Shown here in pieces: positions 1,106-1,362 of a DNA stretch of 8,124 nucleotides (within the stretch, counting starts at the first letter, position 1; each line of letters opens with the position of its first letter). The position numbers and the translations under genes are program-made. The notes beneath the pieces were generated by a model. The model did no database searches. It saw only the letters and a program-made list of their open reading frames with translations, and was not told the origin of the DNA. Source of the stretch: a virus (Duplodnaviria > Heunggongvirae > Uroviricota > Caudoviricetes); the IMG/VR virus record IMGVR_UViG_2713896783_000023. One strand, written 5' to 3'.

Positions 1106-1132
1106 TATCGCGTCCTCAACAATGAATTTTGT

Positions 1133-1238
1133 GATGCGGTGCCTGGTGCCTCCAGGTGACNNNNNNNNNNNNNNNNNNNNNNNNNNNNNNNNNNNNNNNN
1201 NNNNNNNNNNGATGCGGTGCCTGGTGCCTCCAGGTGAC
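1133..1238. other. Assembly gap (50 N at 1161-1210) flanked by identical 28-bp direct copies gatgcggtgcctggtgcctccaggtgac (1133-1160 and 1211-1238)
   Basis: Run of n directly in the sequence; identical flanks read directly. Confidence 0.9.
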
Positions 1239-1362
1239 GTTAACCAGTTAACAATTAACGCCGGATACAGAGCATTCTCGTTACTCAGCAAATGACCGCT
1301 TTACCGATTTAACTGTTCCGCGTGCGCTGAGCCGCATTCACCGCATCACAAAATTCACTTTT

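Follow-up and report, generated by a model that had tools for sequence, protein, structure and literature searches.

The inverted repeat between dicF and dicB probably forms an RNase III-sensitive helix that closes an STnc100-related RNA module

We examined the window, an 8,124-nucleotide stretch of viral DNA (IMGVR_UViG_2713896783_000023, Caudoviricetes), in which a perfect 19-bp inverted repeat lies between dicF and dicB. In all likelihood, the two arms of this repeat pair in transcripts that read through the DicF terminator and close a module of ~160 nt that is related to STnc100, and RNase III cuts the closing helix, with the consequences for DicF, dicB and the module itself that are set out below. 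The repeat is the counterpart of an already known RNase III site of E. coli K-12, described in 1990, and the picture of DicF biogenesis is unchanged. What is new here is that the helix appears, from sequence and folding, to be the closing stem of a multi-hairpin RNA whose similarity to STnc100 scores below the curated threshold.

Comparison of the window sequence with itself showed that TGAATTTTGTGATGCGGTG, at 1123-1141, recurs as an exact reverse complement at 1339-1357. Dinucleotide-preserving shuffles gave a mean of 0.01 matches for a 19-nt repeat, and two matches were seen in 0 of 200 shuffles. Thus, the 19-nt match between the arms is not by chance, and the exact repeat reported in the preliminary description is real. 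It lengthens to 24 nt with 92% complementarity (1118-1141 and 1339-1362). The features around the repeat are listed in Table 1. DicF matches its family model over the full length and well above the gathering score, and the 62-aa gene downstream carries the dicB annotation in identical O157:H7 loci. On the minus strand the order is DicF, U6, AAAAG, 5′ arm, interior, 3′ arm, UUGUU, GAGGA, and the dicB ATG, and the 5′ arm begins 5 nt past the DicF U-tract on this dicF-to-dicB transcript. Both family models and the sequence itself therefore place the arms where they had been said to lie, just 3′ of the DicF U-tract and just upstream of the dicB Shine-Dalgarno (SD) sequence.

Table 1. Features of the window discussed in the text (window coordinates)
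Feature	Position	Strand	Basis or detail
dicB, 62 aa plus stop codon	917..1105	-	PF05358 DicB, 131.8 bits; ATG 1105-1103
dicB Shine-Dalgarno GAGGA	1113..1117	-	read from sequence; 5 nt past the 19-nt 3′ arm
3′ arm of RNA helix	1118..1141	-	core CACCGCAUCACAAAAUUCA = 1141-1123; extension UUGUU = 1122-1118
Interior of structured RNA module	1142..1338	-	truly 119 nt, with 78 nt of artefact added; MFE and RNAalifold folds
Run of 50 N, spurious scaffold gap	1161..1210	.	N run plus one 28-bp repeat copy = 78 extra nt
Interior parts	within 1142..1338	-	GGUGAAU; hairpin 1 (1320-1335); variable central hairpin; 10-bp hairpin (1236-1262); 5-bp hairpin CCUGGAGGCACCAGG (1220-1234)
5′ arm of RNA helix	1339..1362	-	19-nt core UGAAUUUUGUGAUGCGGUG = 1357-1339; extension AAAAG = 1362-1358
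U6 tract of DicF intrinsic terminator	1363..1368	-	read from sequence
DicF sRNA	1369..1420	-	Rfam RF00039, 76.9 bits (gathering score 48), model positions 1-52 of 52
Upstream hairpin CGAAAGUGCACGG...CCGUGCGCUUCCG	about 1552-1620	-	fold, K-12 alignment, literature; ortholog of the K-12 RNase III site for the 190-nt precursor
ParE toxin	3093-3380	-	
PaaA2-type antitoxin	3380-3571	-	
HTH repressor	3599-4000	-	

The arms had been described as lying about 200 bp apart. This distance is an artefact. The N run between them has identical 28-bp sequences in direct orientation on its two sides (1133-1160 and 1211-1238), and the duplicated 28-mer takes in GATGCGGTG, which is part of the 3′ arm. A search with this region found 10,760 places in E. 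coli. In 30 of 30 complete O157:H7 genomes among the matches listed, the non-N bases of this region are 100% identical and span 423 bp rather than 501 bp, which makes the complete genomes 78 bp shorter across the dicF-dicB region. One of them, aligned directly, is continuous: it lacks the 50 N and has the 28-mer once. Because the complete genomes lack the N run and the duplicate, the gap arose where scaffolding joined two contig ends with a 28-bp overlap; an overlap of this length would correspond to k-1 for k = 29. The true arm-to-arm loop is 119 nt, as seen in the gap-free locus L001. The assembly break sits in the most conserved 3′ segment of the module, a segment that is present in several prophages per genome, and this repetition probably explains why the assembly broke here. 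Since the scaffold gap corrupts the geometry of the window, folding of the region needs gap-free sequence, and all folding was run on L001.

In the gap-free minus-strand RNA, the arms pair as a continuous helix that closes a multi-branch loop in both the minimum free energy (MFE) and the centroid structure. The RNA folds at -103.6 kcal/mol (z = -5.2), better than any of 200 shuffles. The same helix was obtained independently by RNAalifold on 58 distinct homologues. It consists of 19 perfect base pairs, or 21 contiguous pairs when a G.U and an A-U are included, and reaches up to 24 with one mismatch. The earlier idea that the arms could form a 19-bp perfect RNA duplex is therefore borne out by all three structures, and this helix dominates the fold of the minus-strand transcript. 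As the criterion for an E. coli RNase III substrate, we used double-stranded RNA of about two helical turns (roughly at least 20 bp) within one transcript; the helix formed by the arms has this length in the MFE, centroid, and RNAalifold structures. RNAalifold also pairs the DicF 5′ region with the dicB coding sequence (columns 7-11 with 261-265), and these pairs are probably spurious.

We then compared this helix across prophage loci. A scan with a DicF core pattern yielded 8 genome loci and 120 viral loci, and both arms were present in nearly all untruncated loci (129 sampled). Among 58 distinct sequences, 1093 of 1102 arm cells held a standard pair when read as the sense RNA, and 1050 did so when read as the opposite strand. 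At least one mismatch was found in 8 of the 58 sequences on the sense strand versus 38 of 58 on the antisense strand; such a bias towards one strand is evidence that the arms pair as RNA, on the transcript in the dicB sense. Variation centred on two pairs, pair 15 (C-G, U.G, U-A, and one C.A) and pair 16 (G-C or G.U). A common variant with an A.C mismatch at pair 4 accounted for 6 of the 58 distinct sequences and 10 of the sampled loci. The preliminary description had proposed an alignment of Qin-like prophages as a check for covariation. In our alignment, pairing is mostly kept on the sense RNA, but formal covariation is weak, with two double-change pairs and an observed score that 11 of 500 shuffles reach, because the 58 dicB- or kil-linked sequences are nearly identical. 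More diverged copies from phage records were used as more informative than this set. The kil-linked copies still form 21 pairs, with one A bulged out and one additional U.G. In a copy from a Klebsiella phage, four compensatory changes (G-C to A-U, U-A to C-G, and A-U to G-C twice) leave 17 of 24 pairs intact, and two such changes preserve a 9-bp stem in phage P7. The comparative data thus offer sense-strand-specific sequence support for the helix over ~130 prophage copies, out to the Klebsiella phage and P7.

An RNase III site 3′ of DicF in the Qin dicBF operon of K-12 was described by Faubladier, Cam, and Bouche in 1990, as relayed in passages of two later articles (PMC5069750, PMC9438474). 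These passages give a 72-nt DicF species as an RNase III product and attribute the main DicF 3′ end to termination at the terminator (PMC5069750, PMC9438474). In K-12, dicF is annotated at 1649382-1649434, and we located the arms at 1649444-1649462 and 1649573-1649591 (1945-1963 and 2074-2092 of the K-12 locus L002). Because the 72-nt species is 19 nt longer than the 53-nt form, it should, by arithmetic on the annotated coordinates, end inside the K-12 5′ arm, at nt 10-15 of it when an uncertainty of ~5 nt in the DicF ends is allowed for. A second line of evidence comes from RNA sequencing of an rnc mutant, whose Table S1 lists position 1649470 ("intergenic dicF-dicB") with 0 and 0 reads in the wild type versus 26 in the mutant and flags it "Known? 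Yes" (PMC5371410). This position is 8 nt beyond the K-12 5′ arm.

The K-12 and O157 sites are orthologous sequences in the same slot between the DicF terminator and the dicB SD. Their arms are only two transitions apart, and the conserved interior flanks are common to both. They differ at pairs 15 and 16 (U.G and G.U in K-12, Watson-Crick like the rest of the helix in O157), in the loop (119 nt in O157 and 110 nt in K-12, with another central hairpin), and in the U-tract (U6 and U5, respectively). RNase III cutting of the helix is thus documented for the K-12 orthologue, by the 72-nt species and the rnc-dependent site at 1649470, and is likely for the O157 copy from its near-identity. This agrees with the suggestion, made from the window alone, that the duplex is an RNase III substrate.

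The accompanying suggestion that DicF is released from the polycistronic transcript by processing is also supported, with a qualification on each side. The helix would account for an alternative, longer 3′ end, while the main 3′ end comes from the terminator. On the 5′ side, processing is the work of other sites: RNase III cuts at a second hairpin, upstream of DicF, to give a 190-nt precursor its 5′ end, and the 5′ end of the 53-nt DicF is generated by RNase E (PMC10448788). The K-12 counterpart of that hairpin is the inverted repeat at L002 1681-1693/1739-1751. Because the hairpin is also found in the window, DicF appears to be flanked there by two RNase III helices.

The arms do bracket the dicF-dicB "spacer," as had been noted, but their interior is a conserved structured RNA and not a plain spacer. 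Its flanks are conserved, its centre is variable, and its hairpins recur in every representative that we folded. An Rfam scan of the window, where the N run interrupts the module, called DicF only. On the gap-free locus, STnc100 (RF02076) matched L001 3146-3295 with 33.6 bits (E 2e-5, model positions 21-154 of 206), a score that does not reach the gathering score of 47. The RF02076 scores form a graded series, from 33.6 bits for the module here through 35.5 for a kil-linked copy and 43 for P7 to 60-200 for canonical copies. We found the core architecture of STnc100 in the module, that is, a GGUG/CACC closing stem round several hairpins and a stacked terminal 5-bp hairpin of the form CCnGG-AGGCA-CCnGG. 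The Rfam alignment and independent MFE folds of six representatives gave the same layout, and the 5-bp hairpin varies across copies (U-A, G-C, and G.U).

STnc100 and PasD belong to a widespread family of prophage sRNAs whose function is described in the literature as unclear or partly known. Like them, the dicF-dicB module is prophage-borne, its closing stem ends in GGUG and CACC, followed by AAU, its hairpin 1 is in the same position, and its 3′ motif is UCACCnGGAGGCACCnGGCACC, with a 5-bp hairpin stacked on the closing stem. The module differs from STnc100 in hairpin 1, which reads GCGGC... here and CCCCC... there; in the length of the closing stem, 19-24 bp versus 4-11 bp; and in its place in an early-left operon behind the DicF terminator, whereas STnc100 lies in the late region near stx, tRNA, or esterase genes. 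A preprint on STnc100 and PasD that we searched for DicF does not mention it. ARAGORN made no tRNA call on the module, and a pattern scan of it found no terminator and one weak promoter-like site, over the dicB start.

To place the inverted repeat within this family, we turned to the canonical copies. A motif-pair scan retrieved many viral loci, which Rfam scores as STnc100 at 60-200 bits. In 88 distinct canonical copies, covariation of the closing stem is clear at the first four offsets (for example, A-U in 29 and G-C in 41 at offset 2, and C-G in 23 and U-A in 28 at offset 3). Because the canonical stem runs just 0-7 bp past GGUG/CACC and the dicB-linked stem runs 17 bp unbroken, the alignments indicate that the inverted repeat is an STnc100-type closing stem that was lengthened to RNase III size in the lineage with the DicF terminator.

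Several other observations concern the family and the module. Canonical STnc100 sometimes occurs in tandem arrays, for instance of five copies, near phage tRNA genes, at L155 4984-7937 and also in L141, L144, and L164; in L155, one copy lies at 4984-5196 and four lie at 6956-7937, ~260-270 nt apart, with tRNA genes at 4009-4167. Within the window, the DicF 5′ GGUGAC (1414-1409, minus strand) is complementary to GUCACC (1238-1233) at the base of the terminal hairpin of the module. The module holds three CACC motifs, which are possible alternative partners of GGUG, and this may be coincidence.

The module is found before genes other than dicB. In Rac-type phages, the long-stem form precedes kil and stands behind a DicF-like hairpin. 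At L132 1489-1732, and also in L133, L255, and L257, a DicF-like sRNA with another 5′ part (RF00039 at 39.1 bits, short of the gathering score of 48) comes first, the module next, and kil last. The kil product is another inhibitor of host cell division. It seems that the sRNA terminator and the module travel as a unit that is placed before division inhibitors. Two P1-like phages, P7 (L131 1498-1618; AF503408.1 72453-72568) and D6 (L256), carry a short-stem copy in their ban/tRNA operon. There it directly follows a tRNA-like gene and precedes a terB/tciA-like gene, which the D6 record annotates as [quoted passage not shown] In one further locus, L102, the module stands before a sequence that is none of dicB, kil, or a terB/tciA-like gene. 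A Salmonella enterica locus (L005, CP191473.1) has a DicF-like RNA with a different 5′ end at ~3640-3700 on the minus strand, where a further small open reading frame (ORF) comes immediately after the terminator; neither the arms nor the module was found at this DicF-like locus. Further downstream in L005 is a product that starts MIDHHYGTD, like the Kil starts in other loci.

These contexts bear on whether the helix serves DicF and dicB at all. Its main role could be structural, as the closing stem (P1) of an STnc100-like RNA, and RNase III cleavage would then be incidental, or a mere route of turnover, rather than a device for DicF or dicB expression. In favour of this, the conserved multi-hairpin interior shows the motifs and architecture of STnc100, a covarying closing stem is found in all family members, and the module also occurs without dicB, before kil, the terB/tciA-like genes, and the other sequence in L102. 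However, canonical members have 4-11 bp, stems of 19-24 bp occur only in copies that follow a DicF-type terminator, and an rnc-dependent end is documented in K-12 (PMC5371410). We therefore regard a purely structural stem as unlikely.

Much less probable still is the alternative given in the preliminary description, in which a small DNA element has inserted here and the arms are its terminal inverted repeats. A MITE-like element of this kind would fit a perfect 19-bp repeat around ~120 bp, the Salmonella DicF-like locus without the whole module, and the several gene contexts that carry it. It does not fit the flanks, AAAAG and TTGTT, which form no target-site duplication, nor the distribution of the module, for which we saw no copies at unrelated sites and always the sense orientation within a phage operon. 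The ends are not conserved in sequence: only on one strand do substitutions still pair, as G.U, and diverged arms change yet stay complementary, the opposite of what is seen for transposase-bound ends. With a conserved folded RNA as the interior, we rejected this explanation. A role at the DNA level (a cruciform or a site for a dimeric protein) or in an antisense transcript is just as improbable, for although the repeat is perfect in the window and GTTAAC-type palindromes lie in the interior, 38 of the 58 sequences are mismatched when read as DNA or antisense RNA versus 8 as sense RNA, neither a promoter nor a terminator turned up on the antisense strand in the pattern scan, and a distance of 119 nt between the arms disfavours extrusion of a cruciform.

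We thus favour RNase III cutting of the closing helix on read-through transcripts, which would proceed as follows. When a minus-strand dicBF-type transcript reads through the DicF terminator, the arms would pair and close the multi-hairpin module, and RNase III would cut the closing helix. On read-through transcripts the cut would give DicF an alternative 3′ end, 19 nt longer. It would also detach the dicB-ydfD mRNA from the upstream RNA, with a new 5′-monophosphate predicted at ~25 nt before the AUG, and should free the module as an RNA of ~135-140 nt with a stem of ~10 bp. Finally, the dicB SD would become more accessible, and dicB translation may rise.

This last step was modelled with the partition function. 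The predicted probability that the dicB SD is unpaired is 0.09-0.26 in the uncut RNA versus 0.67-0.80 after a cut in the 3′ arm, for the O157 and K-12 sequences. The SD lies outside the 19-bp helix; RNAalifold lengthens the helix by weak U.G pairs between the terminator U-tract and GAGGA, and the L001 fold sequesters the SD with more distant partners. The model thus lends weak support to the idea that cleavage may be coupled to dicB translation. Because the distance from the stem to the next gene varies between contexts (5 nt to the SD for dicB, ~11 nt for kil, and ~26 nt in P7), such coupling is no fixed property of the module.

Two known systems resemble this arrangement. In the leader of the phage lambda N gene, an RNase III site between nutL and the N ribosome-binding site reportedly alters N translation when cleaved. 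There, as here, an RNase III-sensitive structure of ~100 nt or more lies in the early-left operon and ends just before the next SD. The lambda structure is a single irregular hairpin with no sRNA or terminator upstream, whereas the present one is a multi-hairpin module, and lambda is absent from the 39 phage records that match the module. The 16S and 23S rRNAs are bracketed by long-range stems in which RNase III cuts both strands, excising the structured RNA. The likeness is that distant complementary segments pair around a structured RNA; the difference is one of size, ~120 nt enclosed here versus 1.5-2.9 kb, and excision of the module is our proposal.

Elsewhere in the window, a repressor/antitoxin/toxin set (3093-4000, minus strand; Table 1) separates the immunity region from the ydfA-like beginning of the dicB-type operon; we take its gene order to resemble the three-component PaaR2-PaaA2-ParE2 system of O157:H7. 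Two near-identical sets of palindromes, ACAATAAAAAACTGT / ACAGTTTTTTATTGT, are found at 2997-3046 and 4037-4077, one just upstream of the ydfA-like gene and the other between the divergent repressor and a YdaS-like gene. They resemble left and right operators. Repeats of the AAGGGGCTT type occur at 5710-6018 in two clusters 256 bp apart within a 400-aa ORF (5420-6622) that has no Pfam match. These units may be replication-origin iterons inside an O-like gene.

The broadest interpretation that we would put forward, and only tentatively, is that the dicF-dicB "spacer" is a third RNA gene of dicBF, a diverged STnc100/PasD that RNase III excises as an RNA of ~135-140 nt. STnc100-type modules would then be portable cassettes placed, in lambdoid and P1-like phages, before accessory genes with host-killing or division-related annotations (dicB, kil, and terB/tciA-like genes), and the DicF-linked form of the closing stem would have turned into an RNase III switch between the sRNA and the toxin. 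If the module is excised and stable, the dicBF operon would be a tractable system for the function of STnc100 and PasD, and it would also offer a route to how the expression of division inhibitors, DicF and DicB or Kil, is partitioned.
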